Shown here one piece after another: positions 7,401 through 49,266 of a stretch of 64,000 bases of DNA. Within the stretch, counting starts at the first letter, position 1. The number at the start of each line of letters is the position of its first letter. Below the pieces are notes generated by a model, which worked only from the letters and a program-made list of their open reading frames with translations, was not told the origin of the DNA and did no database searches. The stretch is from NCBI RefSeq assembly GCF_963921235.1, contig NC_086097.1, forward strand, positions 162,132,001 to 162,196,000, given 5' to 3'. Origin of the DNA: Mobula hypostoma. Lineage: Eukaryota. A program made the translations under genes and the position numbers.

Positions 7401-7585
7401 ACTTTCTACAGGAACACCATCGTCAGGACACTCAATGGATTGGTAGAGAGGTCCCCATGATAAAGGATCCACCAGGTGACATAAATTCTGGCCATAGGAA
7501 TGGAGCAGGGAACAGACTAGATCAGGCACTATCTGTATAAGATTGAGGGATGGCAACTGACTTGTTCTTTTCCTCATGTAGCATG

Positions 7586-9038
7586 ACTTTTAAAAAAGGA
7601 CGGAGAGAGAAACCGGGGAATTATAGACCGGTTAGCCTAGCGTTGGTGGTGGGGAAACTGCTGGAGTCAGTTATCAAAGATGTGATAACAGCACATTTGG
7701 AAAGCAGTGAAATGATCGGACAAAGTCAGCATGGATTTGTGAAAGGAAAATCATGTCTGACAAATCTCATAGAATTTTTTGAGGATGTAACTAGTAGAGT
7801 GGATAGGGGAGAACCAGTGGATGTGGTATATTTGGATTTTAAAAAGGCTTTTGACAAGGTCCCACACAGGAGATTAGTGTGCAAACTTAAAGCACATGGT
7901 ATTGGGGGTAAGGTATTGATGTGGATAGAGAATTGGTTAGCAGACAGGAAGCAAAGAGTGGGAATACACGGGACCTTTTCAGAATGGCAGGCAGTGACGA
8001 GTGGGGTACCGCAAGGCTCAGTGCTGGGACCCCAGTTGTTTACAATATATGTTAATGACTTGGATGAGGGAATTAAATGCAGCATCTCCAAGTTTGCGGA
8101 TAACACTAAGCTGGGCGGCAATGTTAGCTGTGAGGAGGATGCTAAGAGGATGCAGGGTGACTTGGATAGGTTGGGTGAGTGGGCAAAATCATGGCAGATG
8201 CAACTTAATGTGGATAAATGTGAAGTTATCCACTTTGGTGGCAAAAACAGGAAAACAGATTATTATCTGAATGGTGGCCGATTAGGAAAAGGGGAGGTGC
8301 AACGAGACCTGGGTGTCATTATACACCAGTCATTGAAAGTGGGCATGCAGGTACAGCAGGCGGTGAAAAAGGCGAATGGTATGCTGGCATTTATAGCGAG
8401 AGGATTCGAGTACAGGAGCAGGGAGGTACTACTGCAGTTGTACAAGGCCTTGGTGAGACCACACCTGGAGTATTGTGTGCAGTTTTGGTCCCCTAATCTG
8501 AGGAAAGACATCCTTGCCATAGAGGGTGTACAAAGAAGGTTCACCAGATTGATTCCTGGGATGGCAGGACTTTCATATGAAGAAAGACTGGATGAACTAG
8601 GCTTGTACTCATTGGAATTTAGAAGATTGAGGGGGGATCTGATTGAAACGTATAAAATCCTAAAGGGATTGGACAGGCTAGATGCAGGAAGATTGTTCCC
8701 GCTGTTGGGGAAGTCCAGAACGAGGGGTCACAGTTTGAGGATAAAGGGGAAGCCTTTTAGGACCGAGATGAGGAAAAACTTCTTCACACAGAGAATGGTG
8801 AATCTGTGGAATTCTCTGCCACAGGAAACAGTTGAGGCCAGTCCATTGGCTATATTTAAGAGGGAGTTAGATATGGCCCTTGTGGCTACGGGGATCGGGG
8901 GTATGGAGGGAAGGCTGGTGCAGGGTTCTGAGTTGGATGATCAGCCATGATCATAATAAATGGCGGTGCAGGCTCGAAGGGCCGAATGGCCTACTCCTGC
9001 ACCTATTTTCTATGTTTTTATGTTTCTATGTTTCTATG
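7586..9038 (+). mobile_element. 5'-truncated young CR1 LINE with an open RT reading frame
   Basis: ORF 7550..8950: NYRPVSL, QHGFVKGKSC, YLDFKKAFD, PQGSVLGP and FADN (catalytic DD changed to DN). (ttctatg)n-type tail. Confidence 0.95.
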
Positions 9039-9412
9039 ACAAAGGAGGATATTCTTAGTTCACTATTAATGTTTATCTCCTGGAAAGCTGTTTTTTTAGT
9101 TCTCCGATTAAACCAGGGAGGTTTTTTTTCTCATTGATAAAATTACTAATTATGATTGAGTACATGAGTAGACCGGTTTATGATTTTACTTTGCTCAGTC
9201 ATTTAAATTTATCCTCTTTGATATTTCAAGTAAGAGAGTGTTTCAAAGGTTAGTTTTGTTTTGTCACAGTCACACTGGAATTCACTGTTAATTTGATAAG
9301 AGTCATTCTGGAAGTGGACAACAGGAATTCTGCAGATGCTGGAAATTCAAGCAACACACATCAAAGTTGCTGGTGAACACAGCAGGCCAGGCAGCATCTC
9401 TAGGAAGAGGTA

Positions 9413-9450
9413 CAGTCGACGTTTCAGGCCGAGACCCTTCGTCAGGACTA
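9413..9450 (-). ncRNA. Minimal type I hammerhead ribozyme motif
   Basis: Reverse complement reads uaguc-CUGACGA-agg-gucucgg-ccu-GAAA-cg-UC-gacug. Stem I aguc/gacu, short stem II, palindromic minimal stem III. Confidence 0.8.
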
Positions 9451-9695
9451 ATTGAAGGAAGAGTTAGTAAGAGGGAAGAATTTACAGATGGGGAGCAGTG
9501 AGAGATGGTTTCACTGAACTCCCGTCAAAGAGAGGATCTAAACTTCTTCGGTGTAGGCATCACCGGAAGAGGCTTCGCAGTAGTGAATTTAAAAACGCAA
9601 ACAACAGGAATTCTGCAGATGCTGGAAATTCAAGCAACACACATCAAAGTTGCTGGTGAACGCAGCAGGCCAGGCAGCATCTCTAGGAAGAGGTA

Positions 9696-9733
9696 CAGTC
9701 GACGTTTCAGGCCAAGACCCTTCGTCAGGACTA
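9696..9733 (-). ncRNA. Minimal type I hammerhead ribozyme motif
   Basis: Same core as 9413-9450, 283 nt away on the same strand. Confidence 0.8.
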
Positions 9734-9779
9734 ACTGAAGGAAGAGTTAGTAAGAGCTCTTACTAACTCTTCCTTCAGT

Positions 9780-9817
9780 TAGTCCTGACGAAGGGTCTTG
9801 GCCTGAAACGTCGACTG
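9780..9817 (+). ncRNA. Minimal type I hammerhead ribozyme motif (sense to PTK2)
   Basis: tagtc CTGACGA agg gtcttgg cct GAAA cg TC gactg. Predicted cleavage after 9812. Confidence 0.8.
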
Positions 9818-10344
9818 TACCTCTTCCTAGAGATGCTGCCTGGCCTGCTGCGTTCACCAGCAACTTTGATGTGTGTTGCTATTCTGGAAGTGGGCTAGTT
9901 TAGACAAACAGACAAATTTAGACAAACAGATAAATTCCATTATGGATTCCTGCAAGGATGAGTTTTCTGGAAAGTGACAGCATAGTCAAGGATTTTGTAA
10001 AATAAAAAGGGTTAGAAATTATTTGCAAAGAAAGATTAAAGGTAATTTTTTTATTAAAAAGAGCCAATTGCAGATTTTCTGGACAATATACAAGGGATAA
10101 TTAAAATTAGCATGGATGCAGGTATTGAAAGGTGGCCAGTAGTTAGTAAAAAGAGTGTCAAATCTGCACATACAGAGATCTTGGAGGGCATAAGAGAAAG
10201 GAGAGTAGCTACTCTCCTTTAGCTAAAGAAAGAATTTGGCCAGGAAAGGGCTAGGTGGAGAGTTGAGTGAAGATCCATAAGAGCTTTTCTCAGTGGGTTA
10301 GTGATGAAAAATAAGTGGTATTAAATGACTAGATTTAATACTAC

Positions 10345-11589: not shown

Positions 11590-12402
11590 GAAAAGGGGGA
11601 GGGGGGGAAAAACCCAGAGGATGGGCAAGGGGTATAGTCAGAGGGACAGAGGGAGAAAAAGGAGAGAGAGAGAAAGAATGTGTGTATATAAATAAATAAC
11701 GGATGGGGTACAAGGGGGAGGTGGGGCATTAGCGGGAGCTAGAGAAGTCAGTGTTCATGCCATCAGGTTGGAGGCTACCCAGACGGAATATAAGGTGTTG
11801 TTCCTCCAACCTGAGTGTGGCTTCAACTTTACAGTAGAGGAGGCCGTGGATAGACATATCAGAATGGAAATGGGATGTGGAACTAAAATGTGTGGCCCAC
11901 TGGGAGATCCTGCTTTCTCTGGCGGACAGAGCATAGGTGTTCAGCAAAACGATCTCCCAGTCTGCGTTGGGTCTGGCCAATATATAGAAGGCCACATCGG
12001 GAACACCGGACGCAGTATATCACTCCAGCCAACTCACAAGTGAAGTGTCGCCTCACCTGGAAGGTCTGTCTGGGGCCCTGAATGGTGGTAAGGGAGGAAG
12101 TGAGCAATAAAGAGATCCAGAGCAGGCAGAAGACCAGAGTGGGGTGTCCATGAAGAGGAGGAGGGTTGAAGACGGGAGAAGGGGTCATCGGTGGGGGTGG
12201 AAGAGTCCTGTAGCAATAAAGAGATCCAGAGCAGGCAGAATAGCAATCTCCTATCATTTTGGATCTCCCCCTCCCCCTCCCACTTTCAAATCTCTTACTA
12301 GCTCTTCCTTCAGTTAGTCCTGACGAAGCGTCTTGGCCCAAATCGTCGACTGCACCTCTTCCTAGAGATGCTGCGTTCACCAGCAACTTGGATGTGTGTT
12401 GC
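11590..12402. mobile_element. Penelope-like element with inverted arms (minus 11590-12102, plus ~12247-12402)
   Basis: Minus-strand GIY-YIG VIYCVRCSRCGLLYIGQTQRRLGDRFAEH. Plus-strand pseudo-LTR piece with degenerate hammerhead at ~12315-12352. Confidence 0.85.
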
Positions 12403-13059: not shown

Positions 13060-16000
13060 ATAGTGGTTGTGTCTGCATTTTGTTTATAACCATTTCTTCA
13101 GGTGAATCCTGATGTGCAATAAATTATTCATTTTGATGTTATTGTCTCTCTGCCAGGCACTCCACCATGCATATATATTAAAGAAAGAATGCTAATGAAA
13201 GGAATTTAGTTTGTATTTCAGACTGCACAAGTGGTGGCTTATTATTTGGCCAACTAGCATTTTCTGTGTGTCATTGCTTCTGAAATGTTACTCATAGAAC
13301 AATCATGTTTGTGGATTTGAGTATGATATATTCACTTCTTCATAGCAGCAGTTAACAGTCATCCTGATCACCGGGGAGTTAGCTACTATGAATTAACAAA
13401 CCATGAAGTAGCAGGACAGCATATTGTTATGTAATGCACTATGGTTTGTGGTCAAAATTTGAACATGTATATGATTTCCAAATTCCTTATCGTGACATAC
13501 AGTATTGAAGCCAATGTATCACTCTATGTAATTCTATTGAAAACATAATAGGAAACATTAGCATGTGGAAGGCAAAAAAAATGCAGAAATAGGAAATTCA
13601 TTAGTTTAAATTAATTTCTTAATTAAATTAATCATTAATCAAAGTACTGTACTTCTAGGAGCAAAATCCAAACTGGCTTTGTTTAAATAATTGTTAAATT
13701 CCACTGTGCATGCATTGGCATAGTACAGTCAGTTATCTGACAAGTAAATGAGTTTCATAGACATTTAACTTCACGTCAGGGCATGCAAAGAACTGCTCCC
13801 AGTTTGCGTCATGTATATCCATCTGCAAACGATTTAGCAGTAGCTTCATATCAATAAAATATGATTTACCTGTTGCCCATAGCATATATTTTTGTTAAGG
13901 AAGCTAGTCATATCACAGGTATTAAGCATGAAATGATACGGTAGTAGCTTATTTCCATGATCTTGTACGTACTGAATTTGCATCTCATTCACTTTACCGT
14001 TCGTTTTTTTTCTCTTAAGTTGTAACTGCTGTAACAATTCCTGGGTATTAGTCTTGGAAAGTGGAAAGTCAGTAGAAAGCAAAAATAGTCAATGGGTTCT
14101 CAGTCTTCCATAAAAGGCCATCAAGAATAAAGTCTTAACATATTACCTCTGTGAAGGATGACAAAGAATATGTTTCAGTTCAGTCACTATTTAAGCCAGG
14201 TTATTCTGCAACTTATTGGAACTTAGAAAAGAATGTGTTCCAATTAGATAGGCTGATTTCAAAAAAGGGTGCTAATTTTAAAAATTTTGGTTAATTTGTT
14301 ATCCCCTTCACTTAGATTTGATTCTCAGTGGATTACTGAAAGAGAAGCTTGAAACTGTTTCATTGATGTCTCTGGTATTAAAATACCAGCAAGTATGTTA
14401 AACCATTCAAATCCCACAGTTAATTTTCTTTCACAATTGATTTTGACTTTGTTCTATCAAAAGTATTGAATGCCCTAAAAATGTTTAAAAAAGCAAAAAT
14501 TTTGGAACAGCAAGGGGAAAGCTTTCACTTGCTTACAAAAACACTATTACTAATGGTATGAAATGGACATTTGATGAGAGGTCTGATCATCTAGCAAACA
14601 CTCCAGTTTTTATTGAAAGTTAGTTTTCACTTTCTCAGAGTTTGAGTTGTAATGATTCTTCAGTTTCAAAATTGTGTGAGAGTAAATGCTGGTCTCCAAT
14701 TTCCTTTTCTCCATGCTCCACCCTTCTGAAGAAATGCCTCCTGTACTACCTCTTACCTTACTGAAATCATTAAATACCTCTTCTGATGCATCTTCACTAC
14801 ATACTTGCTGATATTGTTATATCAAGTAAACATATGAGAGGACATTGTTTCTTCTGTCGATCCAAAGCATCCTAGCTGTGACGCAAAATGTTGCACACCA
14901 AGCTTCTGTTTGTTACTATTTTGTCTGTGAGTACTTTTTGAAAACTTGCATTCTCTCCAAAGTTAAATTTTGTTTTACAAATGACTTGTACTAATTCAAA
15001 ATTGTGATTTCTCTGTAATCTAGATAAAGAGCTAATTAAATTAAAAAGTTTGGAAAGATTTTTACAAGGAGCAGAAAAGCTGGCAGAGGCCAGTGGGCAT
15101 CTTGGCTCGTTTCTGTGCTGTAGGCTCCTTATAATTAGTAGAATTTTGCAATTGCTTTCACATTGACAGAGGGAAAAATATTAAGCACAAACACTTTGAA
15201 AACCCAGTTACTTAGGAATTCCTTGTATTTTACAGTGTAAAAGTGCATTAATATTCCTTACAGTAGCTCATCTTCCTTGAAACTGAAAACTTGCATACCT
15301 TTAAATCATTTTTTTGCTTAAATGACTCATTCTGCCAGGACTCATGCTACCACATCCTGTTTCATCATAATGGATTTGGTAGTTAATAAGACATGTTACT
15401 ATCTTTCTACTGCTTCCCAGGTTTTCTTTGCCCTCAGCATTAATTGTGCAGCGGTACAAAAGGCTTTCTCACAAATATGTTTCAAGTGAGAGAATTAATT
15501 CCCTAATTATATGTATTCCAAAGCAGTTTAATTCAGACCATTGTTTACCCACATTAGTTTGCAGCTTTAGAGAAAAATTGTGACTCATTTTCAGAAATGC
15601 TAACGATAAAGTGGAAACGTAAATTTAAACAGCTTTTTGATAACTCTGAAGTACAGCTCACCAACTATCAGTAAGTATATTTTATTGCCTTTTGTTCTAA
15701 CATTCTAAAGTCTTTAATGTGATTTACTGTGCTTGTGGCATTATGTTTCAGAATTAATGACAGTGTTCTTTTATTTTGGGACACCGAGTAAACAAATGCA
15801 TGTTTCAAATGGGTGTGTTCAGCGCCATTTCTAAGTTGCGAGAAATATTTTACTGTTCAGCTTCATAAAGATTATATATTTCTTATTGGAGCAGTGCTAA
15901 TGATTCAGGTTTAGGCATGTAATTACGGTGATCCAGCAACTACATCAGCCATTTCAGTGACCACATTATCATATTTATTGTGCTCTCTCAATCTATGTTG

Positions 16001-17304: not shown

Positions 17305-19603
17305 ATACCTTGCACATGATTTGGTATTGGGAAATGAACCTGGTCAGGTGTCAAATCTCTCAGTGGGAGAGCATTTTGGGGATAGTGATCATAATTCTAT
17401 CTCCTTTACAATAGCATTGGAGAGAGATAGGAACAGACAAGTTAGAAAAGCATTTAATTGGAATAAGAGGAATTATGAGCCTATCAGGCAGGAACTTGGA
17501 AGCTTAAATTGGGAACAGATGTTCTCAGGGAAAGGTGCAGAAGGAATGTGGCAAATGTTCAGGGGATATTCGTGTGGAGTTCTACATAGGTACATTCCAA
17601 TGAGACAGGGAAGTTATGGTTGGGTACAGGAACCGTGGTGTACAAAGACTGTAGTAAATCTAGTCAAGAAGAAAAGAAAAGCTTACGAAAGGTTCAGAGA
17701 GCTAGGTAATGTTAGAGATCTAGAAGATTATAAGGCTAACAGGATTAGGAAGGAAATTAAGAGAGCCAGAAGGGGCCATGAGAAGGCCTTGGCGGGCAGG
17801 ATTAAGAAAAACCCCAGGGCATTCCACAAGAACATGAAGAGCAAGAGGGTAAGACATGAAAGAATAAGACCTATCATGTGTGAAAATGGGAAGTGTGTAT
17901 GGAACCGGAAGAAATAGCAGAGGTACCTAATGAATACTTTACTTCAGTACTCACTATGGAAAAAGATGTTGGTGACTGTAGTAATGATTTGCAGCAGACT
18001 GAAAAGCTTGAGCATGTAGATATTAAGAAAGAGGATCTGCTGGAGCTTTTGGAAAGCATCAAGTCAGATAAGTCGCCGGTACCAGAAGAGATGTACCACA
18101 GGCTACTGTGGGAGGTGAGGCAGAAGATTGCTGAGCCTCTGCAGATGATCTTCATATCATCAATGGGGATGGGAGAGGTTCCGAAGGATTGGAGGGTTGC
18201 AGGTGCTGTTCCCTTATTCAAGAAAGGGAGTAGAGATAGCCCAAGAAATTATAGACCAGTGAGTCTTACTTCTGTGGTTGGTAAGTTGATGGGGAAGATG
18301 CCAAGAGGCAGGATTTATGAACATTTGGAGAGGCATAATATGATTAGGAATAGTCAGCATGGCTTTGTCAAGGGCAGGTCATGCCTTACAAGCCTGACTG
18401 AATTTTTTGAGGATGTGACTAAACACATTAATGAAGGAAGAGCAGTAGATGTAGTGTATATGGATTTCAGCAAGGCATTTGATAAGTTACTCCATGTAAG
18501 ACTTATTGAGAAAGTAAGGAGGCATAGGCTCCAAGGGGACATTGCTTTGTGGATCCAGAACTGGCTTGTCCGCAGAAGGCAAAGAGTGATTATAGACGGG
18601 TCGTATTCTGCATGGAGGTTGGTGACCAGTGGTATGCCTCAGGGATCTGTTCTTGGACCCTTACTCTTCGTGATTTTTATAAGTGATCTGGATAAGGAAG
18701 TGGAGGGATGGGTTAGTAAGTTTGCTGATGACACAAAGGTTGGGGGTGTTGTGGATAGTGTGGAGGGAAGTCAGAGATTACAGCAGGACATTGATAGGAT
18801 GCAAAACTGGGCTGAGAAGTGGCAGATGGAGTTCAACCCAAATAAGTGTGAAGTGGTTCATTTTGGTATGTCAAATATGATGGCAGAATGTAGTATTAAT
18901 GGTAAGACTCTTGGTAGTGTGGAGGATCAGAGGGGTCTTGGGGTCCGAGTCCATAGGACGCTCAAAGCAGCTACGCAGGTTGACTCTGGTTAAGAAGACA
19001 TATGGTGTATTGGCCAACATCAATCATGGAATTGAATTCAGGAGCCGAGAGGTAATGTTGCAGCTATATAGGATCCCACTTGGAGTACTGTGCTCAGTTC
19101 TGATCGCTTCACTATAGGAAGGATGTGGAAACCATAGAAAGGGTGCAGAAGAGATTTACAAGGATGTTGCCTGGATTGGGGAGGATGCCTTAAGAAAACA
19201 GGTTGAGTGAATTCGGCCTTTTCTCCTTGGAGCAACGAAAGATGAGGGGTGACCTGATAGAGGTGCATAAGATGATGAGAGGCATTGATCCTGTGGATAG
19301 TCAGAGGCTCTTTTCCAGGGCTGACATGGCTGCCACAAGAGGGCACCAGTTTAAGGTGCTGGGGAGTAGGTACAGAGGAGATGTAACGGTTAAGTTTTTT
19401 ACACAGAGAGTGGTGAGTGCGTGGAATGGGCTGCCAGCAGCGGTGGTGGATAGGGTCTTTTAAGAGACTTTGGATAGGTACATGGAGCTCGGAAAAATAG
19501 AGGGCTATGGGTAACCCTAGAAATTTCTAAGGTAGGGACATGTTCGGCACAACTTTGTGGGCCGAAGGGCCTGTATTGTGCCGTAGGTTTTCTATGTTTC
19601 TAT
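17305..19603 (+). mobile_element. CR1 LINE (end of endonuclease, RT, 3' UTR), frameshifted
   Basis: ORFs 17321 (GDSDHN), 17893 (NYRPVSLTS, QHGF, PQGSVLGP, FADD) and 19203. tttctatg tail. Confidence 0.95.
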
Positions 19604-20254: not shown

Positions 20255-23200
20255 AAACCATAGAAACCACAGCACAGAAACAGGCCTTTTGGCCCTTCTT
20301 GGCTGTGCTGAACCATTTTCTGCCTAGTCCCACTGACCTGCACACGGACCATATCCCTCCATACACCTCCCATCCATGTAGATTAGATGTCCAATTTATT
20401 CTTAAATGTTAAAAAAGAACCCGCATTTACCACCTCATCTGGCAGCTCATTCCATACTCCCACCACTCTCTGTGTGAAGAAGCCCCCCTAATGTTCCCTT
20501 TAAACTTTTCCCCCCTCACCCTTAACCCATGTCCTCTGGTTTTTTTTTTCTCCCCTTGCCTCAGTGGAAAAAGCCTGCTTGCATTCACTCTATCTATACC
20601 CATCATAATTTTATATACCTCTATCAAATCTCCCCTCACTCTTCTACGCTCCAGGGAATAAAGTCCTAACCTATTCAACCTTTCTCTGTAACTGAGTTTC
20701 TCAAGTCCCGGCAACATCCTTGTAAACCTTCTCCGCACTCTTTCAACCTTATTTATATCCTTCCTGTAATTTGGTGACCAAAACTGAACACAATACTCCA
20801 GATTCGGCCTCACCAATGCCTTATACAACCTCATCATAACATTCCAGCTCTTATACGCAATACTTTGATTAATAAAGGCCAATGTCTAATCCAATTTACC
20901 ACCTCTCCATGTATACCTTGTGACTGAATTTTCCTAACTAACCTCACAAGCAGGACCTTGTCAAAGACCTTACTGAAGTCCATGTAGACAATATCCTTTG
21001 CCTTCCCTTCATCCACTTTCCTGGTAACCTCCTCGAAAAACTCCAATAGATTGGTCAAACATGACCTACCACGCACAAAGCCATGTTGACTCTCCCTAAT
21101 AAGTCCCTGTCTATCCAAATGCTTGTAGATTCTGTCTCTTAGTACTCCCTCCAATAACTTACCTACTACCGACGTTAAATTTACCGGCCTATAATTTCCC
21201 GGATTACTTTTCGATCCTTTTTTAAACAACGGAACAACATGAGCCACTCTCCAATCCTCCGGCACCTCACCTGTAGACAGCAACATTTTAAATATATCTG
21301 CCAGGGCCCCTGCAATTTCAACACTAGTCTCCTTCGAGGTCCGAGGGAACACCCTGTCAGATCCCGGGGATTTATCCACTTTAATTTTCCTCAAGACAGC
21401 AAGGACCTCCTCCTTTTCGATCTGTACAGTTTCCATGATCTCACTACTTGTTTCCCTTAATTCCATAGACGTCATGCCAGTTTCCTCAGTAAATACAGAC
21501 GCAAAAAACCTATTTAAGATCTCCCCCATTTCCTTTGGTTGCGCACATAGCTGACCACTCTGGTCTTCAAGAGGACCAATTTTATCCCTTACAATCCTTT
21601 TGCTCTTAATATACCTGTAAAAGCTCTTTGGATTATCCTTCACTTTGACTGCCAAGGCAACCTCATGTCTTCTTTTAGCCCTCCTGATTTCTTTCTTAAG
21701 TAGTTTCTTGCACTTCTTATACTCCTCAAGCACCTTATTTACTCCCTGCTTCCTATACATGTCATACAACTCCCTCTTCTTCTTTATCAGAGTTGCAATA
21801 TCCCTTGAGAACCAAGGTTCCTTATTCCTATTCACTTTGCCTTTAATCCTGACAGGAACATACAAATTCTGCACTCTCAAAATTTCTCCTTTGAAGGTTT
21901 CCCACCTACCGATCACATCCTTCCCAGAGAACAACCTGTCCCAATCCACGCTTTTTAGATCCTTTCTCATTTCTTCAAATTTGGCCTTCTTCCAGTTCAG
22001 AACCTCAACCCTAGGACCAGATCTATCCTTGTCCATAATCAAGTTGAAACTAATGGTGTTATGATCACTGGAACCAAAGTGCTCCCCTACACAGACTTCT
22101 GTCACTTGTCCTAACTCGTTTCCTAACAGGAGATCCAATATTGCATCCCCTCTAGTTGGTCCCTCTATATATTGATTTAGAAAACTTTCCTGAACACATT
22201 TTACAAACTCTAAACCATCTAGACCCCTAACAGTATGGGAGTCCCAATCAATATATGGAAAATTAAAATCCCCTACCACCACAACTTTATGTTTCCTGCA
22301 GTTGCCTGCTATTCCAATTCTCGTTGACTATTGGGTGGTCTGTAATACAATCCCACTAATGTCGCCATACCTTTCCTGTTTCTCAGCTCCACCCATAAGG
22401 ACTCAGTAGACAAGCCCTCTAATCTGTCCTGCCTGAGCACTGCTGTAATATTTTCCCTAACAAGCAATGCTACTCCCCCACCTTTCATTCCTCTGCCTCG
22501 ATCACATCTGAAACATCGGAACCCTGGAATATTAAGCTGCCAGTCCTGCCCTTCCTGTAGCCAATTTTCACTAATTGCTATAACGTCATAATTCCACGTG
22601 TCAATCCACGCCCTCAACTCATCCACCTTCCCTGCAATACTCCTAGCATTGAAATATATACACCTCAGAAGATTTTTACCACCACTCACAACCTTTCTAT
22701 TAGTGAATTTGCTTGAACTTTTAACATCATTTATTTTCACCCCAGCCACATTGTCAGCTCTGACACTCTGGTTCCCATCCCCCTGCAAATCTAGTTTAAA
22801 ACCTCCTCAATAGCATTAAGAAACCTCCCTGAAAGGATATTGGTCCCCCTGTTGTTCAAGTGTAACCCGCCTCTCTTGTACAGGTCCCACCTGCCCCAGA
22901 AGAGGTCCCAATTATCCTGAAATCTGAAACCCTGCGCCCTACACCAGTTCCTCAGCCACTTGTTCATCCTCCAGAGCATCCTATTCCTACCCTCACTGGC
23001 ATGTAGCACAGGAAGCAATCCTGAGATTACCACCCTCGAGGTCCTGCTTTTCAACTTCCTACCAAGCTCTCTATACTCACTCTCCAGGACCTCCTCACTC
23101 TTCCTTGCTATGTCATTGGTACCGATGTGCACCACGACATCTGGCTGGTCACCCTCCCACTTCAGAATGTCATGCAAGCGATCAGAGGCATCCTTGACCC

Positions 23201-23324
23201 TGGCACCCGGGAGGCAACAAACCATCCTGGATTCTCTGTCACGACCACAGAACCTCCTATCTGCACCTCTAACTATTGAGTCCCCTATCACTACTGCTCT
23301 CCTCTTTTCCCCCCTCCCTTCTGA
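20255..23324 (-). mobile_element. CR1 LINE with ORF1 SGNH-esterase domain, APE endonuclease and internally deleted RT
   Basis: ORF 22791(-) IGDSIVRG...VHIGTND...GLHLN (SGNH). ORF 22309(-) YFNARS...GGGVALLV (APE). ORF 20834(-) VGDFN...SDHN...NYRPV...QHGF. ORF 20427(-) is the RT C-terminus. Confidence 0.95.
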
Positions 23325-23576
23325 CCTCCTATTTTATCTTCCCATGCTGAGCATCAATTGTCACTCAAATAAATCCTCCTTCCTTTGTCTGTGTAAGAAA
23401 TACACTAGCATGCCATGTCCTTGAAGGAAGTATAAACAACCTGTGAGCAGTCTTCATCTCTCTCTCTCTTTTAAAAACAAGTTGTTAGTGTTAAATAACT
23501 CTCTCTCTCTCTTTTCAAAAGCACAGTTAATATGGGTAAACGAGCACAGTTCATAGGGGTAATTCAGGACCCCATC

Positions 23577-26737: not shown

Positions 26738-27659
26738 CTTGATTAGGAAGGGCATCAAAGGATGTGGAGAGAAGGCAGGAGAATGGAGTTGAACAGGATA
26801 ATAAATCATCTGAGATGGAATAGTGGACCAAATGGCCTGATTCTTCTCCTATTTCTTATGATCTTATGGTCTCTCTATATATGACATGTATGAAAGCAGA
26901 ATTCATGAATGTTCCCGGTGTGACGTATAGAATCTGTTTTTTGTCATTCAGAAATGAAAGTGTGTGGGAGAGGATCACAGAAACAGCTGTAACACACGTA
27001 AAAGTTGCTGGTGAATGCAGCAGGCCAGGCAGCATCTCTAGGAAGAGGTACAGTCGACATTTCGGGCTGAGACCCTTCATCAGGAATAACTGAAAGAAGA
27101 GCTAGTAAGAGATTTGAAAGTGGGAGGGGGAGGGGGAGATCTGAAATGATAGGAGAAGACAGGGTGGGGAGGGGGGATGGAGCCAAGAGCTGGACAGTTG
27201 ATTAGCAAAAGGGATATGAGAGGGTCATGGGACAGGAGGCCTAGGGAGAAAGAAAGGGGGAGAGGGGAAGCCCAGAGGATGGGCAAGGAGTACAGTGAGA
27301 GGGACAGAGGGAGAAAAAGGAGAGAGAGAAAAAGAATACGTACATATATAAATAAATAACGGATGGGGTACGAGAGGGAGGTGGGACATTAACAGAAGTT
27401 CAGGAAGTCAATGTTCATGCCATCAGGTTGGAGGCTACCCAAGCGGAATATAAGGTGTTGTTCCTCCAACCTGAATGTGGCTTCATCTTTACAGTAGAGG
27501 AGGCCATGGATAGACATATCAAATGGGAATGGGATGTGGAATTAAAATGTACGGCCACTGGAAGATTCTGCTTTCTCTGGTGGACAGAGTATAGGTCCAA
27601 CTTCCCCTCGTACCCCATCCATTATTTATTTATTTATTTGTTCTATCTATCTATATATA

Positions 27660-29711
27660 CACCCTATCCTCGTTGTATGCGAGAGATACGTTCCTCGAAG
27701 TTGACGCATAATGTGAAATCGCATAATGTGAATAATTATTTAAATGGAGAAAATAGGGATGCATTCCACAGGGCTTCCTAAATATGTTTTATCTGTAATT
27801 TATTCACATTTTTATACCAATACGACACAAAAGCAGTACTACAAGACAACATTTGTATTATATTTAATTAATTTAAGTTAATATTCAATGTAATAAATCA
27901 TAGAAAGTTAACATCCTCTGGAGTGCAGTACTCACCAACAGTGGCAGGTGTGTTCGCTCCGGGAGATGAGTGGTTGTTGTGGTGTCGGGCAGCTTTACAT
28001 GGATAAGGTGGATGGTTGTGGTCGTCAGGATCGTATCAAGCACAGCAAGGGGTGAAGGAAGAATCACAGAACTCTTAGAACCGTCGGCAGCAGAAGATTA
28101 CAGCGATTTGCATAAAGTGGTGACGGTTGTTTGCTTGGCAGCATTTTGTTTTTCAGTATAAATTTGCTTGTAGGGAAGAAGGGTTAATGGCAGGGAACGA
28201 CTGAAATGCTGACTCCGTTCTAAACTTGGGTCCATGTCTGTCGCCATTTGTGCCAAGTGTTCCGATTTCCACCATTCCCTCACCATTGGTAAACTCCCGG
28301 GATTTTCAATATCGTCTGTTGCTTGCAGCATCTGAGAGATAGTTCGCTGTAAAAAAAAATACGCCTTGAATGTGAATCACACCGGTCAAGTGGTTGAATC
28401 AGCGATGTTGTGTTCAGCAGCGGGAAACGCGCTGTTATGTTAGGATGAATGCTGTCCAAATGTTTAGGATGGGCTGGCGCAATGTCAACCAACAAAAGAA
28501 CTTTAAAGGCAAGATTCTGTTTCCAGCAGTAGCGTCCCAGAGCTGTGTTACCTTCAGCTGATGCCACGCTGTTTATAATTTCCAACTTTTTTTCAAGTGT
28601 TAAAGCGGTTCTCTGCCACTCGGCTGACGGCACAAGACACGACATCGGATGCTTAGGAGGCATAATTAAATATTTCAAGCACAAAATCACGGCACCATAG
28701 GTAAAACCAACAAAAGTTTAAGATCGCGCATCCACAGCTTGCCAAAACCAATGCGAGAGTAGCGGGAATGAAATAGTGAGGCACGCGCACCTGACTGGTA
28801 TTGGCGGGAAAGCGGTGCTTCTCGTCCCAACAGTGAGACTATGAGGCATGTGCACGTGACTTGTATTGGCGCGAAAGCAGTGCTCCTTGCATTACTGTGA
28901 ATTTTGGACACATATAACGAGACGTTGGTATAAATAGGTTCCTGGCATAACTGTGAATCCGCATAGTCTGAAGATGCATATAATGAAGGTAGGGCAGAGG
29001 TCTCCAAGCCCCGGGCCACGGTCCGGTACCGGGCCGTAAAGCATGTGCTTACCACGCCGCGAGGAAACAATATGAGTCAGCTGCACCTTTCCTCATTCCC
29101 GGTCACGTACTGTTGAACTTGAACATAGGGTTGCCAACTGTCCCGTATTTGCCGGGACATCCCATATATTGGGCTAACTTGGTTTGTCCCATATGGGATC
29201 GCCCTTGTCCTGTATTTCCCCCGCTAAGGAGTGTTCCCATGAAACCTTTCGTGCTGAAATGGCGCAAAGTGAAGAAGCAATTACCATTAATTTATATGGG
29301 AAAAATTTTTGAGCATTCCCAGACCCAGAAAATAACCTACCAAATCATGCCAAATAACACACAAAACCTAAAATAACACTAACATATAGTAAAAGCAGGA
29401 GTGATATGCTAAGTACACAGCCTATATGAAGTCAAAATAATGTATGTATAGTGTAGTTTCACTGAACAGAATTGCCAAAAACGATTTGTAGAAAGAAATC
29501 GGCGCGTACATGCATGCGCACACAGGTGCCCACACAAGGCTTCATGGTCATGGTAGTCTTTCTCGGGGTAAACGCAACGTATTTGACTGCTACTCTTGAC
29601 CATTGGCAACCCTACCCGCCCTCCCACCCCGGTCAGCCGGTCCGCAAGAATATTGTCAATATTAAACTGGTCCGCGGTGCAAAAAAGGTTGGGGACCTCT
29701 GGGATAGGGTG
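27660..29711 (-). mobile_element. Tigger/pogo DNA transposon, internally deleted
   Basis: TA|CACCCTATCC...GGATAGGGTG|TA termini. ORF 28280..28690(-) fuses the N-terminal LTLEKKLEII to the DDE_1 part KVLLLVDIAPAHP...NTTSLIQPLD. Confidence 0.85.
28995..29701. mobile_element. hAT (Charlie-like) non-autonomous element inserted in the Tigger TIR
   Basis: TIRs CAGAGGTCTCCAA / TTGGGGACCTCTG. 8-bp imperfect TSD aggtaggg/ggataggg. Internal TAGGGTTGCCAA...TTGGCAACCCTA pair spans 29126-29614. Confidence 0.75.
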
Positions 29712-31765
29712 TATATGTATTCTTTTTATCTCTCTCCTTTTTCTCCCTCGGTCCCCCTCACTATACTCCTTGCCCATCCTCTGAGCTTCCCCCTTCCCCC
29801 TTTCTTTCTCCCTAGGCCTCCTGTCCCATGATCCTCTCATATCCCTTTTGCCAATTAACTTTCCAGCTCTTGGCTCCATTCCTCCCCCCCCCCCCCCGCC
29901 GTCTTCTCCTATCATTTCGGATCTCCCCCTCCCCCTCCCACTTTCAAATCCCTTACTAGCTCTTCTTTCAGTTAATCCTGAGGAAGGGTCTCAGCCCGAA
30001 ACATCAACTGTACTTCTTCCTAGAGATGCTGTCTGGCCTGCTGCGTTCATCAGCAACTTTTATGTGTGTTGCTTGAAATTCCAGCATCTGCAGATTTCCT
30101 CGTGTTTACAGAAACAGCTGTGATGTAAGGGCGAGCAGTGAGGGAATGTGTCCACCAGTCCACCTCACTTACTCTGTGAGTGAGCGAGTGAGTCTGCTCA
30201 GTGCTTCCATCTCTGCTTGGCTCGACTCAGCCCCAGATTGTTATAGTTTGGGAGTGTGTGAGAAGCAAGGTTTGGGGAGTGAAGGCATGTGGAATTCTCC
30301 ATTTCCTCCCAGCACATGTAGCTGCAGCCCCACAGTAGGCAGCAAATCTATCCCAGTGATGTCCTAAACACACATTTGTATATTCAGGCTGTAACAATCG
30401 GCTGTTCATAACCTGAAGACCTGTTTCTTCAGTTCAATTCATAATTGAAACTCACTAGTGAACATTTTGCTGAAATTAAACTTTGTATAATGCTTATAAC
30501 TGTCTGAAATGATTTTTTTTATTCCAACACAAATCAAATCTGTAGACACGAAGGAAATTGATAAATTCGTATGTATTCCTAGCTCCTGATACGATGAATT
30601 AAGAAGGAACAGGGCTGAGTGAACACTGTGGTTGGCCTCTTTCTTTCCAGTCTTGGCAAAGTGTCTCGGCCCAAAAGGTCAGCTGCTCATTTTCCTCCAT
30701 TGGTGCTGCCTGGCCTGGCATGTTCCTCCATCATTTTGTGTGGGTTGCTCAATGTTTCTAGCATCTGCAGAATTTCTCTAGTCTGCACTTGTCTACATAA
30801 TGTGTTGCTAATGTTGGAAAGTCAGTGTATTGTTGTATCGTCTGGCTTATTAGGGCATGCCCAGCAGTCCAGACTATCAAATGAAAGAAAAAACATTAAC
30901 TTGCTCTTTCTGCTTCTGTCAATTTTTTAATCATATTTTGCTTGGTATCCCTTCATAGATTTCAAAGTCTAGAAATAGAATCTGTTGAAGGTGATAGCAA
31001 TCATGTAGAAATGAAATTTAACTCTCTGAAGGATACCTTGGTAGAATCAGCAAAGTCAGTGATTCCTAAAAAAGGAAAAAGCACAAAGAATAAATAGATG
31101 ACAGATGAAATCAAAAATCTAATGGAAGAATGAAGATGGAAGAAAGCAAATCCTATAGAATGTAAGTCCTTAGATAAAAAAAAGTTAAAAGATGTCAAAA
31201 AGCCAAACAAGAATGGTTAAACCAGGAATGTGAGCAAATAGAAAGAATCCCTATTACTGATCTAAGAAGGTTACACCAACAAATCAGGAATATCACTGGT
31301 AAAAAGCCCCTGTGTTCTTCAGATGGATGTTTGAAAGCAAAGGACAGTACCATTGTCATGGAAAAAGATGAGATTATGAACAGATGGACTGAGTATATTC
31401 AGGAATTGTTTGAAGACGATCGAGGTGAAAAACCATAAATTAAGAAAAACATTGAAGGTCCAGTATTTTAAAATCTGAAGTTCATAATGCAATAAATAAG
31501 ATGAAGAGAGGAAAGGCAGCAGGTCCTGATGAATTAGTAATAAAACAAATTATCGCCCTTGAAGATTATGAAATTGAAAAACTTAGTGATTTAATCAATG
31601 ACATTTATGAGACTGGAATAATAGCAGAAGAGATGAAAAAATCAGTATTTATCACTCTTCCTAAGAAACCTGGAGCAATAGAATGTGAATTACACAGAAC
31701 CATAAGTTTAATGAATCATATCACCAAGATACTTCTAAGAATTTTTATGACAGGAGCTAAAAGTA

Positions 31766-33765
31766 CAAACCCCATTTCCAGAAAAGTTGGGATATTTTCC
31801 AAAATGCAATAAAGACAAAAATCTGTGATATGTTAATATATGTGAACATTTATCTAACTGACAAAAGTACAAAGAAAAGGTTTTCAATAGTTTTACTGAC
31901 CAACTTAATTGTATTTTGTAAATATACACAAATTTAGAATTTGATGACTGCACACTCAACAAAAGTTGGGACAGAGTTAAAATAAGATTGAAAAGTGCAC
32001 AGAATATTCAAGTAACACCGGTTTGGAAGACTCCACATTAAGCAGGCTAATTGGTAGCAGGTGAGGTATCATGACTGAGTATAAAAGTAGCGTCCATCAA
32101 AGGCTCAGTCTTTGCAAGCAAGGATGGGTCGTGGCTCACCTCTTTGTGCCAAAATTCGTCAGAGAATTGTTAGTCAGTTCAAAAGGAACATTTCTCAATG
32201 CAAGATTGCAGAGAATTTAGGTCTTTCAATATCTACAGTACTTAATATTGTGAAAAGATTCAGAGACATCTGAGTGCGTAAAGGGTAAGGTCGGAAACCA
32301 CTGTTGAATGCGTGTGATCTTCGAGCCCTCAGGTGGCACTGCCTAAGAAACAGTCATGCTACTGTGACAATTATAGCCACCTGGACTCGGGAGTACTTCG
32401 GAAAACCATTGTCGCTCAACACAGTCCGTTGCTGCATCCAGAAATGCAACTTGAAACTGTATTACACAAGGAGGAAGCCATACATCAACTCTGCAGAAAC
32501 GCCGGCGAGTTCCCTGGGCCAGAGCTCATCTCAGATGGACCAAAAGACTGTGGAACCGTGTGCTGTGGTCAGATGAGTCCACATTTCAACTAGTTTTTGA
32601 AAAAAATGGGCGTCGAGTTCTCCGTGCCAAAGATGAAAACGACCATCCAGATTGTTATCAGCGAAAGTTGCAAAAGCCAGCATCTGTGATGGTATGAGGG
32701 TGCATCAGTGCCCATGGCATGAGTGAATTGCATGTATGTGAAGGTACCATTGACTCTGAGGTGTATATTAGGATTTTAGAGAGACATATGTTGCCACCAA
32801 GGCAACGTCTCTTCCCGGGACGTCCATGCTTATTTCAGCAGGACAATGCCAGACCACATTCTGCACGGGCTACAACAGCGTGGCTTTGTAGACACAGAGT
32901 GCATGTGCTTGACTGGTCTGCTGCCAGTCCAGATCTATCTCCTATTGAAAATGTATGGTACATCACGAAGAGGAGAATCGGACAACGGAGACCATGGACT
33001 GTTGAGCAGCTGAAGTCTTATATCAAGCAAGAATGGACAAAATTTCCAATTGCAAATCTACTACAATTAATATCCTCAGTTCCAAAATGATTACAAAGTG
33101 TTATTAAAAGGGAAGGTGATGTAACACAATGGTAAACATGCCTCTGTCCCAGCTTTTGTTGAGTGTGTTGCAGCCATCAAATTCTAAATTTGTGTATATT
33201 TACAAAATACAATTAACTTGGTCAGTAAAACTGTTGAAAATCTTTTCTTTGTACTTTTGTCATTAAATAAAGGTTCACAAGATCACAAGATCACAAGACA
33301 AAGGAGCAGAAGTAGGCCATTCGGCCCATCGAGTCTGCTCCGCAACTCCCCCATGAACTAAAATATTCTCCCATCTTGTTCCAATTTCCGGCTTTTTCCC
33401 CATATCCCTTGATACCCTGACTAATTAGATACCTGTCAATCTCCTCCTTAAACACCCTCAGTGATCGGGCCTCCACAGCTGTATGTGGCAACGAATTCCA
33501 TAAATCCACGACTCTCTTGCTAAAAAAATTTCTCCTCATCTCTGCTGTAACTGGGTACCCTCTAATTCTAAGATTATGGCCTCTTGTCCTGGACTCACCC
33601 ACCAAGGGAAACAACCTTTCCACATCTACTCTGTCCAACCCTTTCAACATTCGAAATGTTTCTATGAGACCTCCTCTCATTCTTCACGTGAATTAACATA
33701 TATGACAGATTTTTGTTTTTATTGCATCTTGGAAAATATCCCAACTCTTCTGGAAGTGGGGTTTG
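31766..33765 (+). mobile_element. Tc1 DNA transposon with long TIRs and TA TSD; transposase pseudogene
   Basis: TA|CAAACCCCATTTCCAGAAAAGTTGGGA...TCCCAACTCTTCTGGAAGTGGGGTTTG|TA. DD34E motifs WSDE, FQQDNARPH, SPDLSPIENVW. Confidence 0.93.
33279..33682 (-). mobile_element. Short CR1 3' end inserted in the right TIR of the Tc1
   Basis: ORF 33291(-) RGGLIETFRMLKGLD...LWNSLP. (tcttgtga)n tail; ttcac flanks both sides. Confidence 0.85.
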
Positions 33766-35700: not shown

Positions 35701-37724
35701 ATGAGGCCCATCTTTATAGTGTGATATGACATTACACTGCTCCTTCATGGCCACATTATTTAGCCCTATGAGAGATAACAGTTTACTGACCTCAATAAAA
35801 ATCATTACTTAAGGAAATGTTAATCTTAACCTTTTGTGCAGGTCTTTTACTTATTGAAAACCAATGTTGTGTATAAGGTTTATCCATTTTTAATGTTTTT
35901 GTACCTTTAATATCTGAATTCTTTCTTTTTACTTTACTGATATTGGCTATCAATTAAAAGCCACCAAATAGTTTATTTTAAGAAAAGAATTAATTTATTT
36001 TATGTTAAGAAATCACTTTATACAGGTTTTTTCTCTTGATTTTTAAACAATTTTTAAATACATTTTTCTTCCACCCACTGTTTAAAAAAAAATGGAAAAA
36101 TGTCTGTATTCCATTTCCTCATCATAATTATAAACTTCTTAAATCAGCATATCCAAATATTTTAAATTTTAATTTAATTTAAGCCTGTTATAAAGAGGAT
36201 GTTTTGTAATTGCAGCGTTTCAAATATTTTTATGGTTTGTAAGTTGCCTTGGAAAATTATTACTCAGAGGATTAAGTAAAATCTACTCCCTTTTGTTATA
36301 GTTCGACCTTTATTCTAAATAACTAGTCACTGTATACATTTTATCTCACCCTGTCTTGTCATGATAATTTGTCAACCTCTTTCCTACCCATAACTTTATA
36401 CTTCCCTGTTTCCCTCAGGTCTTCTAATTTGCAAGGTCCTTTTATTCTTTGTCAAGATTACTTATGGGCACTCTTCCTCTTTCTTTATCTCTTATATACT
36501 ATGAATATTGTGTGCAGGTCTGATTGCCACGCTACAGGAAATATGTGATTAAGCTAGAGAGGGTACAGAATAGTTCCTGCTTTACAGGCCTTGACTTATC
36601 AGACTAAGTCATCTTCCCCTGAACTGAAGGAACTTGAGCGGAAACATGATAGTGGTATGTAAGCTTATGAAGGGTTTTAATATAAATAGACAACCAATAT
36701 TTTTTTCCCGTAGTAGGGATGTCAAAAACAAAAGGCATAGATTTAAGTTGTGACAGTAAGTTTAAAGCAAATCTGAGGGGTACATTTTTCACACAGTAGT
36801 TGGTATCTGGAATGAGCTGCCAGAGAATATAGTGGAGGCAAAAACATAAGCAACATTTAAGAGGCATCTGGGCAAGTAATTAATGAGCAATGTATAAAGG
36901 AATATGGAATTAATGAGGGCAAGAGGGTTAGTGCAGAGGGGCATGATGGTTGGCATGGACTTGCTAGCTGAAAGACTGGTCAGCTGCAAACTCTTTTTAA
37001 CGTTCTTTAACATAGGTTTTAAATCTTATTATGTGATTGGCCTCTTCCAATAAGCTGCTCTCCCTGAAGGTTGAGATAAATATTCATACTTTACCTGCAT
37101 TTATATTTTCTTTACTGCTGCGTCTCAATATCTTGCACCTTTTTACCTTGAGCTACTCCATAACCCTTTCCATTACATCTGAGCTATGACCACTTTGAGT
37201 ATGAAGTTTTCACTGTACATCACAAAATCAGAAATATTGTCTAAGATTGTTGATTAGATTGTTAATGTTCATGATACACTGTCCCACATTTAAAAACTTT
37301 TCATGCAACAAACACATAGAAATGTCTTGGTGTTGCTAAAACCATGCTTCATGATGCAAATTGGAGACCTTTTCTTCAAATCCTTTCTCAGCTCCAAAAT
37401 TTTGTTTTATTTATCTTTCTGTTACAACTGCACGTGGAGTACTGACTTGGCTGATTTCTCAGTGGAAATATGTGCTAAGTTATTTCAGTGATGCTGTTTC
37501 TCCTATAGCTGAATATTGTTTTCAAAGGTTACTATGCTGTCTTAGTATCGTGTCACCAGTCGTTTGTATTCTTTTCTTCTGTTAAATGTGTTCTGCTGCA
37601 ACAATGACAAAGGGATTTGAGGTTATTCATTGCTCCACAATTCAGTAAAGCATTTCCCATTTGAATGCATTAATTTTCATTCTTATCACAATTTAAAAAA
37701 TGGGACTTGTGTAGACCGTGAATT

Positions 37725-40205
37725 ATGTAGCTTCCAGGCCAAGACATTTCCCACTACTGCTGGACCCCTTGGCTCCCCTTCCCCACCACTACTCCCCAAC
37801 CCTGAGTCTCTCAGGCACCTCTATCAACTCTTGGATCTTCAGAGCTTCCATCTTCCTCACACTCTACCTTTCCTGAACACCTTGACCCTCCTCTCCCTAA
37901 TGCCACCAACTCTTTCCCCCCTCTGATCCCAGCCCTAATCCCTGCCTTGTCTTCACCATTCCCTCCGACCTTCCCCTCTGAGGCAGAATGTTCTGTCCTC
38001 AGCAGGGGCCTTACTTTTGTCTCCCTTTGCCCACACCTTTGTGAGTTCAGTGTCTGCCACAATGCTGAGCTCCTCTTCCATCACCTCTGTCTCCGAGCCC
38101 ACTTCTTCGGCAAGAATTTCCCACCCTGCACTCTCTCTGCACCAATTCCAGCCTCACCATCAAAACCCACAGACAAAGGGGCTACTGTTATAGTATGGTG
38201 GACTGACCTCTACCTTCACCAACCTCATCAAGTCTGGAGATCTCCCATCCACAACCACCAGACTCATTGTTCCCTTACCCTGCTCTGCTCATCTCTTTCT
38301 CCTATCCAAGATCAACAAACTTCACTGTCCAGGTAGGACTATTGTTTCTGCCTGTTCCTGCCACACTGAACTCTTGTCCACATACTTTAACTTCATTTTA
38401 TCCCCCTTGGTTCAGTCCCTTACTACCTATGTCTAAGACACTTCTCATGCTCTTGATCTCCTCAACAACTTGCAGTTCCCTGGCTCTGATTGCCTCATTT
38501 TCACCATGGTTGTCCAGTCTCTATACACTTCTAACCCTCATCAAAAAGACCTCCAGCCTCTCCGTTTCTTTCTTGACAACAGACCTGACCAGTTCTCCAC
38601 CACTACCACCCTCTTCCAACTGGCAGAACTGGTTCTCGCCCTCAACAATTTCTCTTTCAGCTCCTCCCACTTTCTCCAAACTTAAGATGTAGCCATGGGC
38701 ACCCAGATGAGTTCCAGCTATGCTCACTGTTTCATTGGCTATGTAGAACAGTGCATGTTCCAAACCTTCCGTGGTAATGCTCCCCAACTTTTTCTGCTAT
38801 ACATTGATGACTGCATTGGTGCTGTTTCATGTACTTATGTTGAGCTTGTCAATTTCATCCACTTTGCCTCTAACTTTCCCACCGTGTATTCTTTGCTGCC
38901 CTTAAATTCACGTTATCCATTTCTGACACCTCTCTCTCCTTTCTCGATCTGTTTGTTTACATCACTGAAGACAAGCTGTCTCTTGATGTCTTTTATAAGC
39001 CCACCAATTCCCATAGGTACCTTAACTGTATCTCTTTCCACCCTGTCCTTTTTCTTAGTGCCTTTATCTCCATCGTATCTTTTCCCAGGATGAGGCTTTT
39101 CTTTCCTCTTTATTCAAAGAATAGGATTTCCCTTCCTCCAGTATTGATGCTGCCCTCACCCGTATCTCCTCCATTTCCCAGATTTTTGTGCTCACCCCAT
39201 CTTCCCACTGCCCTAACCGGGATAGAGTTCCTCTCGTCCTCACCTACCACCCCAGAAGCTTCTGCATCCAACACAACATTTACTGCAGCTTCAATCATCT
39301 TCAGCAGCACCCTGCCACCAAACACATCTTTACCTCTCTCCTGCACCCCACCCCCCCCCCCCGCATCCCCACACTCCGCCTTCTGCGGGGATTGCTCCAA
39401 TCGTGATTCCATTGTCCATTCATCTCTCCTCACTAATTTCCCTCCTGGCACTTATCCCAGAAAGCGGAAAAAGTGCTACAGCTGCCCATTCACATCCTCG
39501 TTCACCTCCATTCAGAGTCCCAAACAGTCCTTTCAGGTGAGGCAACACTTCACATGCAAACCTTTTGAGATTGTCTATTGTATCTGGTGCTCCCAGTTCG
39601 TCCTTCTCCACATTGGTGAAACCCAACATAGGTTAGGATTCCACCTTGTCGAGCACCTCGGCTCCACCCGCAAAAAGTGGAATTGCCTGGTGGCCAACCA
39701 TTTCAATTCCTATCTCCATTCCCATTCCAACATGTCAGCCCATGGCCTCCTCTTCTGCTACGATGAGGCCACTCTCAGGCAGGAGGAGCAACATCTCATA
39801 TTCTGTCTAGTAAGCCTCCAATCTGATGGCATAAACATCGTTTTCTCCAACTTCTAGTAATTTTTTCCCTTCCTCTTCCCTTTTCTTCATATCCCCACTC
39901 TGGCCCCTTACCTCTTCTCACTTCCCTTTCTCCCATGATCCAATCAGATTCCTTATTCTCCAGCCCTTTGTCCTTTCCACTTATCACCTCTCGCGCCCCC
40001 CCCCCCCAGCTTGTCCACCCACCTGGTTTCACCTATCACCTTCGAGCTTGTCCTCCTGCTCCTACTCCCCTAACCTTCTTATTCTGGCTTCTTCCCCTTC
40101 CTTTCCAGTCCTAATGCAGGGTCTCACTGGAAACATCAACTGTTTATTCATTTCCACAGAAGCTGAATGACCTGCTGAGTTCCTCCAGCATTTTGAGTGT
40201 GTTGA
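37725..40205 (+). mobile_element. Penelope-like element, largest copy (RT plus GIY-YIG), heavily decayed
   Basis: LSRGLTF, PTDKG, MVVQSLYT, LALNNFSF, AMGT, YIDD, then GTYP...IVYCIWC...IGETQHRL...EH. Confidence 0.9.
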
Positions 40206-44300: not shown

Positions 44301-45336
44301 TGCCCTCCTTTGCTGACACATTTAGTGCCTTGATGGTGTGCCAATCCAACTGAATTTTCCTGAGCCATTCACGTTCCAGCAACGGTGGTCCTCCATTTTT
44401 CAGTACATAGAGGTTCAGTTGCTGTGTTTTACCTCCGTGGGTCACTGTCACTTTCATTTTGCCTTCGGTATGCACTTTCTGTCCTGTGTAAGTCTTTAGC
44501 AGTAGTTTAGTTCGTTTCAGAGGTATGTGTGAAAACAGTGGTTTTTAGTCGCTTACAGAGATTACTGTTAAGGTTGAACCTGTGCCCAACTCCATTTTCA
44601 GTTTCACGCCTGCCACTTGTGGAGTGATCCATATTACTCTTCGATCATCTGTCTCTTCCACACTGTGGAGTGGCAGACAAGACAATTCACTTTTGTCTGA
44701 GTCATTTTCATCAGAATTGCTTTCTTTCATTTTGTGCACATTGTTGTACTTTCCTTTCTGGGGTTTCTTGTTTCTCTGTATTTTGCCCTTTTCCAGCTTG
44801 CCAGTGTGGCCCTGTTTAGCACAGTTTCGGCATCCTTTATCTTTAAACCAACAACCACCAGGGTCATGTTACCTGTTCCCACAACGGTAACATTTCTTTC
44901 CTTTATTTCTGCACAGTGACATTTTATTCGTAGCATATTCCAGAGATTTTTGTTGTATCTCTGAAGCACCTCATGTGGCTGTTTCTAATGATATTGAGAT
45001 GTTTAGTGCTTTCTCAAATGTAAAGCCTTTTTCACACAGGAGCTTCTTTTGTGTAGTTTCACAGTACATACCGCACACTAACCTATCCCTCAATGTGCCT
45101 GATCGACCGGCTCCAAATTGACAATGTTCTGATAATTAGCGCAATTCAGCACAATATTCAGAAATGCTTTCATTTTTGCTCTGATTCCGTTTATGGAATT
45201 TAAATCTTTCAGCAATGACCAACGGTTTGGGGTTTAAATGCTGTTGGAGAGAGTCTACTATTTGTCCGCTGGCTTTTCAGGAGTTAACAAACTCCGTTAT
45301 TGAGCATGCGGTATATTTTTGTGCCCGTTACACTAA

Positions 45337-49128: not shown

Positions 49129-49228
49129 TACTAATCATTAACTGAATAAACTGGGGTATGTGAAAGGCAACATACATCAAAGTTGCTGGTGAACGCAGCA
49201 GGCCAAGCAGCATCTATAGGAAGAGGCG

Positions 49229-49266
49229 CAGTCGACGTTTCAGGCCGAGACCCTTCGTCAGGACTA
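49229..49266 (-). ncRNA. Minimal type I hammerhead ribozyme motif
   Basis: Reverse complement tagtc CTGACGA agg gtctcgg cct GAAA cg TC gactg. Confidence 0.8.

Follow-up and report, generated by a model that had tools for sequence, protein, structure and literature searches.

A bounded, gutted Penelope insertion with tandem hammerhead motifs in the genome of the ray Mobula hypostoma

The layout of Penelope insertions, the type of ribozyme that they carry and the derivation of retrozymes from Penelope-like elements (PLEs) are all already published, and several described systems come close to the locus analyzed here. In Adineta vaga, Pen2a_Av consists of two direct pseudo-LTRs (pLTRs) next to a shorter inverted pLTR, with a 31-bp tail on one side and flanked by a TSD; a Pen2 derivative on scaffold-304 shows this form with an internal microhomology-mediated deletion (Arkhipova et al. 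2013, PMC3846280). The layout of Penelope is also given in the legend to Fig. 2 of Craig 2021 (PMC8557442), where the way in which Penelope elements form tandem and inverted ends is called undefined. For PAc, a Poseidon element of the green anole, the study by Frangieh et al. 2024 (PMC11167929) describes an enzyme that cuts and extends both target strands and two adjacent internal RT start sites that define the tail; the hammerhead of this element depends on the protein that PAc encodes, and insertion in vitro proceeds without it. Minimal PLE hammerheads are described as cleaving weakly even in dimeric form, one of nine Xenopus dimers is reported to have cleaved, and the origin of retrozymes from Penelope elements has been proposed, not traced.

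We analyzed a 64-kb window (64,000 nucleotides of contig NC_086097.1 in assembly GCF_963921235.1) for which the original prediction, made from the DNA letters, had placed a retrozyme-like unit with two hammerheads 283 nt apart at 9318..9756. The repeats and hammerheads of that unit are there, but the description was too short, with an inverted arm, a third hammerhead and a TSD missed (Table 1). The 13-bp TSD (13/13 bp matching and flush with both outer ends; chance about 2e-6 with 6 bases of slop allowed per end), together with the inverted arm, indicates that the real object is a single insertion of 563 bp, 9318-9880, made up of an inverted tail-less pLTR, a pLTR with its tail, a 127-bp body remnant and another tailed pLTR, in this order. 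The predicted 156-bp direct repeats with a common end point are genuine: they are identical at 153 of the 156 positions and, at an offset of 283, extend over 1.55 units of 283 nt. The inverted arm adjoins the neighboring pLTR copy with zero spacer, and a 32-nt tail is found at one outer end only. The locus thus displays partially tandem pLTRs next to an inverted copy that is truncated at its 5' end, a one-sided tail in the 30-40 bp range, a TSD and a hammerhead motif in the pLTR, all of which characterize EN+ Penelope-like insertions; the GIY-YIG domain that completes this set is contributed by sister copies, not by 9318-9880 itself, which lacks a GIY-YIG ORF and is therefore non-autonomous. 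In short, 9318-9880 is a real, young-looking, well-bounded, gutted Penelope insertion of known layout.

Table 1 Features of the insertion and its flanks (window positions)
Feature	Position	Strand	Remarks
TSD, tailed end	9305..9317	.	same 13 bp as 9881-9893, directly next to the element
3' pseudo-LTR with 32-nt tail (tail 9318-9349)	9318..9473	-	3/156 bases differ from the other copies
Minimal type-I hammerhead 2, cleavage predicted at 9418/9417	9413..9450	-	anatomy as in PMC4209133
127-bp remnant, supported as parent body, natively following the tail	9474..9600	-	loose ends 9318/9323 and 9475; pLTR junction 9474/9473
Upstream pseudo-LTR with tail (tail 9601-9632), begins at the palindrome center	9601..9756	-	
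Minimal type-I hammerhead 1, cleavage predicted at 9701/9700	9696..9733	-	
Inverted tail-less pseudo-LTR arm, no spacer	9757..9880	+	124/124 identity to the neighboring copy
Minimal type-I hammerhead 3, on the inverted arm	9780..9817	+	
TSD, tail-less end	9881..9893	.	13 bp

The outer layout of 9318-9880 is that described for Pen2a_Av and its derivative. Unlike the rotifer element, the ray insertion retains only 127 bp of the body, its palindrome has neither overlap nor spacer, the deletion or jump ends on the start base of the other two pLTR copies, and the parent is a Neptune-like, very abundant family in a ray host. With PAc, the insertion shares two adjacent end sites bounding the tail, the pLTR hammerhead and the extension of both target strands; its tail and tail-less ends match the two internal RT start sites of PAc. 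Published work on Pen2a_Av and PAc accounts for the outer form. PAc, however, belongs to another clade by motif and was studied in vitro as an intact element, and the available part of that report mentions no template jumps back into the ORF start.

The sister copies in the window are 84-95% identical to the insertion over the pLTR, and those at 94-95% carry GIY-YIG upstream, in a region that comprises a pyrimidine-rich 3' region and the GIY-YIG endonuclease (Pfam E 4e-5). In protein P0001, a C-x4-C-x2-C motif precedes GIY-YIG, and homologues unite RT motifs with GIY-YIG; the closest named protein comes from Mobula hypostoma itself (95%), followed by Hypanus (77-89% over most of the query). 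A Zn-finger-like motif between RT and EN, together with RT phylogeny, marks the Neptune clade (Craig 2021, PMC8557442). The parent appears to be a Neptune-like, abundant Penelope element of the ray, with the clade assigned by motif, not by tree. The Penelope origin proposed at the outset is supported by the GIY-YIG-bearing sister copies and by the layout of pLTR, tail and TSD.

Two other insertions of the same family likewise have one arm tail-less and the other tailed. The first, at 49167-50913, is a 1.7-kb near-perfect palindrome (arms 99.5% identical, TSD 10-14 bp) with GIY-YIG on both arms and 6 unpaired bases at the center, where a nearly symmetrical turn occurs at an unrelated point. The second, at 26991-30107, is flanked by a 14-bp TSD and has arms that are 91% identical and separated by other DNA; the arms open the pLTR with different variants, possibly reflecting two templates. 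This insertion is older, and the approximately 2 kb between its arms, without a Pfam match, reads like a decayed DNA-transposon ORF, possibly Tigger/pogo-like. The family is further represented by a rearranged copy at 11592-12402, in which a 500-bp minus-strand endonuclease/3' piece is followed by a 34-bp local duplication and, at the end, by a plus-strand tail-less pLTR carrying a 12-bp deletion. A decayed longer Penelope-like copy of an older subfamily, at 37621-40170, has RT-like and GIY-YIG-like frames, is about 74% identical to the young family and shows no match to the 127-bp spacer.

Both minus-strand hammerhead cores of the original prediction are present as intact minimal type-I motifs, a call that is based on motif anatomy as described by Cervera and de la Pena 2014 (PMC4209133). 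Each core has the form UAGUC / CUGACGA / A + GGGU-loop-GCCU / GAAACGUC / GACUG, with the palindrome ACGU, as had been noted, where stem III would be, and with a G-U pair closing stem II. In common with the metazoan PLE minimal hammerheads of that source, the ray motifs lack loop 3, are palindromic at positions 15-16 (ACGU), have an unpaired base before stem II and are dispersed in high number. They differ in the 4-bp stem II with G-U closure instead of the conserved G10.1-C11.1 and in the occurrence of three hammerhead copies in one short insertion. The Rfam scan of window positions 1-24000 produced zero hammerhead family matches; four of its six rows were sub-threshold miRNA matches, which are due to the palindrome.

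The interpretation put forward originally, a true non-LTR retrozyme in which dimeric hammerheads would excise a 283-nt monomer (9700-9418) that circularizes, with the insertion then copied from the circle, now seems very improbable. Two intact minimal hammerheads do lie in tandem, the unit size falls within the retrozyme range, and a chondrichthyan genome with such PLE pLTR-derived repeats, with a mean consensus of 363 bp, has been described. Like the non-LTR retrozymes of PMC7229834 and 10.64898/2026.07.22.740005, the locus is PLE-derived, has a GC content of 47% and repeats a unit of about 300 bp head to tail, type-I hammerheads included; unlike them, it comprises fewer than two full units, with a minimal ribozyme and an arm that is predicted to block it. 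Tandem Repeats Finder called no 283-period array among its 4 rows, and a 1.55-unit repeat without such a call falls outside the working definition of 10.64898/2026.07.22.740005. Non-LTR retrozymes are expected to consist of at least two consecutive units, detected by that program, with complete hammerheads; the two hammerheads are present here, but the second full unit is not. They are further expected to carry a canonical type-I hammerhead that is free to fold, and the ray motif is minimal. The two-hammerhead repeat, in a canonical TSD-flanked Penelope insertion, is therefore probably not a retrozyme. Copying of a circle would also have to stop exactly at the unit junction, a chance of about 1 in 283, and the ends of the insertion are tail sites, not ribozyme cuts.

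Folding predictions likewise disfavor release of a 283-nt unit by a dimeric ribozyme. Under crude constraints, without co-transcriptional folding or protein help, the dimeric hammerhead forced in the 9756-9318 RNA lies about 27 kcal/mol above the minimum-energy fold, and about 93-97 kcal/mol above it when the inverted arm is transcribed, because hammerhead 1 then sits inside a 124-bp hairpin. The pairing probability of stem II was at most 0.03 in all three RNAs folded. In any read-through RNA, hammerhead 1 is predicted to be fully paired with the inverted arm, so that the motif would stay free solely in transcripts whose start lies between 9756 and 9733. The circular 283-nt monomer folds slightly better than shuffled sequences (z -1.5, with 9 of 150 equally good), a marginal point in favor of the circle. 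A ribozyme cut was also considered as the source of the start shared by the pLTR copies and was rejected, since 55 bases separate this start from the predicted cut downstream of it.

The minus-strand frame of the 127-bp spacer reads as claimed in the original prediction, where it was interpreted as plausibly the start of the PLE ORF. Positions 9080-9600 were compared with public ray sequencing runs, three of which gave data. At the tail, the loose ends with the best support (9318, 9323) read into the start of the spacer in each of these three runs, which implies that the link from tail to spacer is native to the parent; loose ends at 9473 continue into the native pyrimidine-rich 3' region. Run X5 adds a loose end at 9475 (14 contigs) with 30 further bases over which the frame, read by hand, stays open. 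The stop in the spacer frame, at 9527, is a minority letter, the other letter accounting for 83% of the depth in run X1 and 97% in X5. Taken at the level of sequence, the loose ends that run from tail to spacer and the in-frame continuation support the view that the parent's body begins with the spacer. Protein comparisons speak against the more specific assignment as an ORF start: the 49-residue frame gave zero candidates in a word-indexed protein search, a single repetitive spurious match among 1.84 billion protein representatives and no match to 23 endonuclease homologues. The window contains no second copy of the spacer. Summed contig depth reached 9e6 (X1) and 1.2e7 (X5) for the pLTR and 5e4 (X1) and 1.6e5 (X5) for the spacer, against 4-16 (X1) for the unique flank, which gives a rough ordering of pLTR over spacer over flank and not copy numbers.

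A single X1 contig spans 9080-9341 and so runs from flank to tail; it deviates by 2 letters and 1 gap, indicating that the X1 sample has this end of the insertion too; the interior is outside its span. An assembly artefact, also considered, is an unlikely origin of the 563-bp form, given the intact TSD, an arm that stops at the usual tail-less site of the family and an independent X1 contig that crosses from flank to tail, the support from outside records being confined to that end.

Whether the 283-nt arrangement belongs to a repeat family can be approached through the junction. In the best eight DNA runs, 13 of the 20 sampled words of 9400-9632 were present; 53 of the 203 possible words in this interval overlap the junction or one private base, so that about 5 of 20 would be expected to do so (the identity of the missing words was unspecified). 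Among the 24 pieces listed (134,158 others lay beyond the listing), no contig bridged 9473/9474, and no run on record as RNA was found among the listed runs sharing words of 9400-9632; run X9, which may be RNA, was left out as evidence of expression. Three pattern scans of metagenome and viral contigs, for the junction and for the spacer, returned 0 matches, a result that is uninformative for an animal repeat. On these word and contig data, the evidence leans towards a rare junction. This bears on the proposal of a small non-autonomous mini-Penelope family, in which a 439-nt master (pLTR-127-pLTR) would be transcribed into a linear RNA and mobilized by the parent enzyme, with the arm rebuilt at each landing. 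The insertion keeps all the cis parts that such a family would need, namely pLTR, tail and body start, and the anole protein is described as needing just the first 172 nt of the ORF region (PMC11167929); nevertheless, the word counts, the unbridged junction and the minority allele at the spacer stop make such a family rather unlikely.

The feature that any account of the locus has to accommodate is that all three pLTR copies (at 9473, 9756 and the 9757 side) begin on an identical base, which is used by 0/6 other close-family segments in the window. For this pattern, one linked cause is more economical than coincidence. No other copy in the window starts there, so the base is not a family-wide hotspot within it, which counts against the account preferred below. 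Two of the three shared starts follow from fold-back; the third, at the junction, is the coincidence. The simplest single cause that we infer is a single template boundary reached twice with a jump in between, an alternative already entertained in the original prediction and the one that best accounts for the common start base. The 3' copy differs at 3 of its 156 bases from the other two, which are identical to each other; two of these differences are private when compared with five of five outside copies, and at the third the 3' copy agrees with four of the five. The identity of the arms and the differences in the 3' copy fit two templates. Ageing alone would produce this 3-versus-0 pattern with P about 0.09, and ageing or gene conversion in the palindrome could also explain it.

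On balance, we favor, with confidence slightly above even, a rare or one-off non-coding insertion made in a single integration by the abundant Neptune-like Penelope element. The element's endonuclease would have made a cut with a 13-bp stagger, after which reverse transcription would have started internally, at the tail site, and copied 156 nt up to a template boundary, either the RNA 5' end or a turn in the source locus. A jump to a second RNA, landing 127 nt past its tail, would have been followed by copying back to the identical boundary, and the inverted arm would have arisen either through fold-back or because the other cut strand primed synthesis at the tail-less site. The tandem hammerheads would then be a by-product of the element's end having been copied twice. 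The CTCTT of the native continuation in X5, described below together with its one-base misfit, counts in favor of this account as well.

A possible but less probable origin is that the same insertion was gutted or rebuilt at the DNA level, either when a full-length copy lost its body in a microhomology-mediated deletion or through a break at the palindrome center that was repaired from another copy and rejoined at the center base. There is a precedent in the Pen2 derivative, which is described as having the identical layout with an internal microhomology-mediated deletion (PMC3846280), and the native continuation in X5 has CTCTT two bases beyond the junction, the same 5-mer as the pLTR opening. 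The microhomology fit is off by one base, however, with one letter that matches neither side, and the two 3' regions of the family that were inspected contain CTCTT 3 times (in 891 bp) and 4 times (in 599 bp); moreover, a plain deletion leaves unexplained why the end point coincides with the palindrome center. Later repair would fit the identical arms beside a diverged 3' copy, at the price of two template switches.

A literature search yielded no paper on a Penelope copy whose three pLTRs share a single start base, which is a narrow gap. It is conceivable, although we would treat the idea as speculative, that the locus records a Penelope "strong-stop" intermediate, in which RT would start inside the 5' pLTR, reach a defined RNA 5' end at 9756/9473, run off there and jump to another RNA. 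If so, pLTR tandems would be built, and cargo captured, at the strong-stop jump, and a jump landing just past the tail would generate a head-to-tail double-hammerhead unit, a seed for the expansion of a retrozyme array. A fixed RNA 5' end combined with template jumps could then underlie both the building of Penelope ends and the origin of retrozymes. As it stands, 9318-9880 neatly exemplifies an insertion layout that is already known, and its value is as a lead on the origins of tandem ends and of retrozymes.

The window also contains relics of other mobile elements. In a LINE relic on the minus strand at 20837-23333, endonuclease and RT frames are preceded by a GDSL esterase frame, and more RT relics are found at 7547-8950, at 17884-18993 and elsewhere in the window. 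At 41451-44544, also on the minus strand, lies the relic of an LTR retrotransposon, whose broken frames match RT, RNase H and, weakly, integrase. DDE_3 transposase relics are located at 32698-33090 and 51513-52244, and a pair of 26-nt inverted repeats (85%) 400 bp apart, at 14373-14824, possibly delimits a small non-autonomous DNA transposon.
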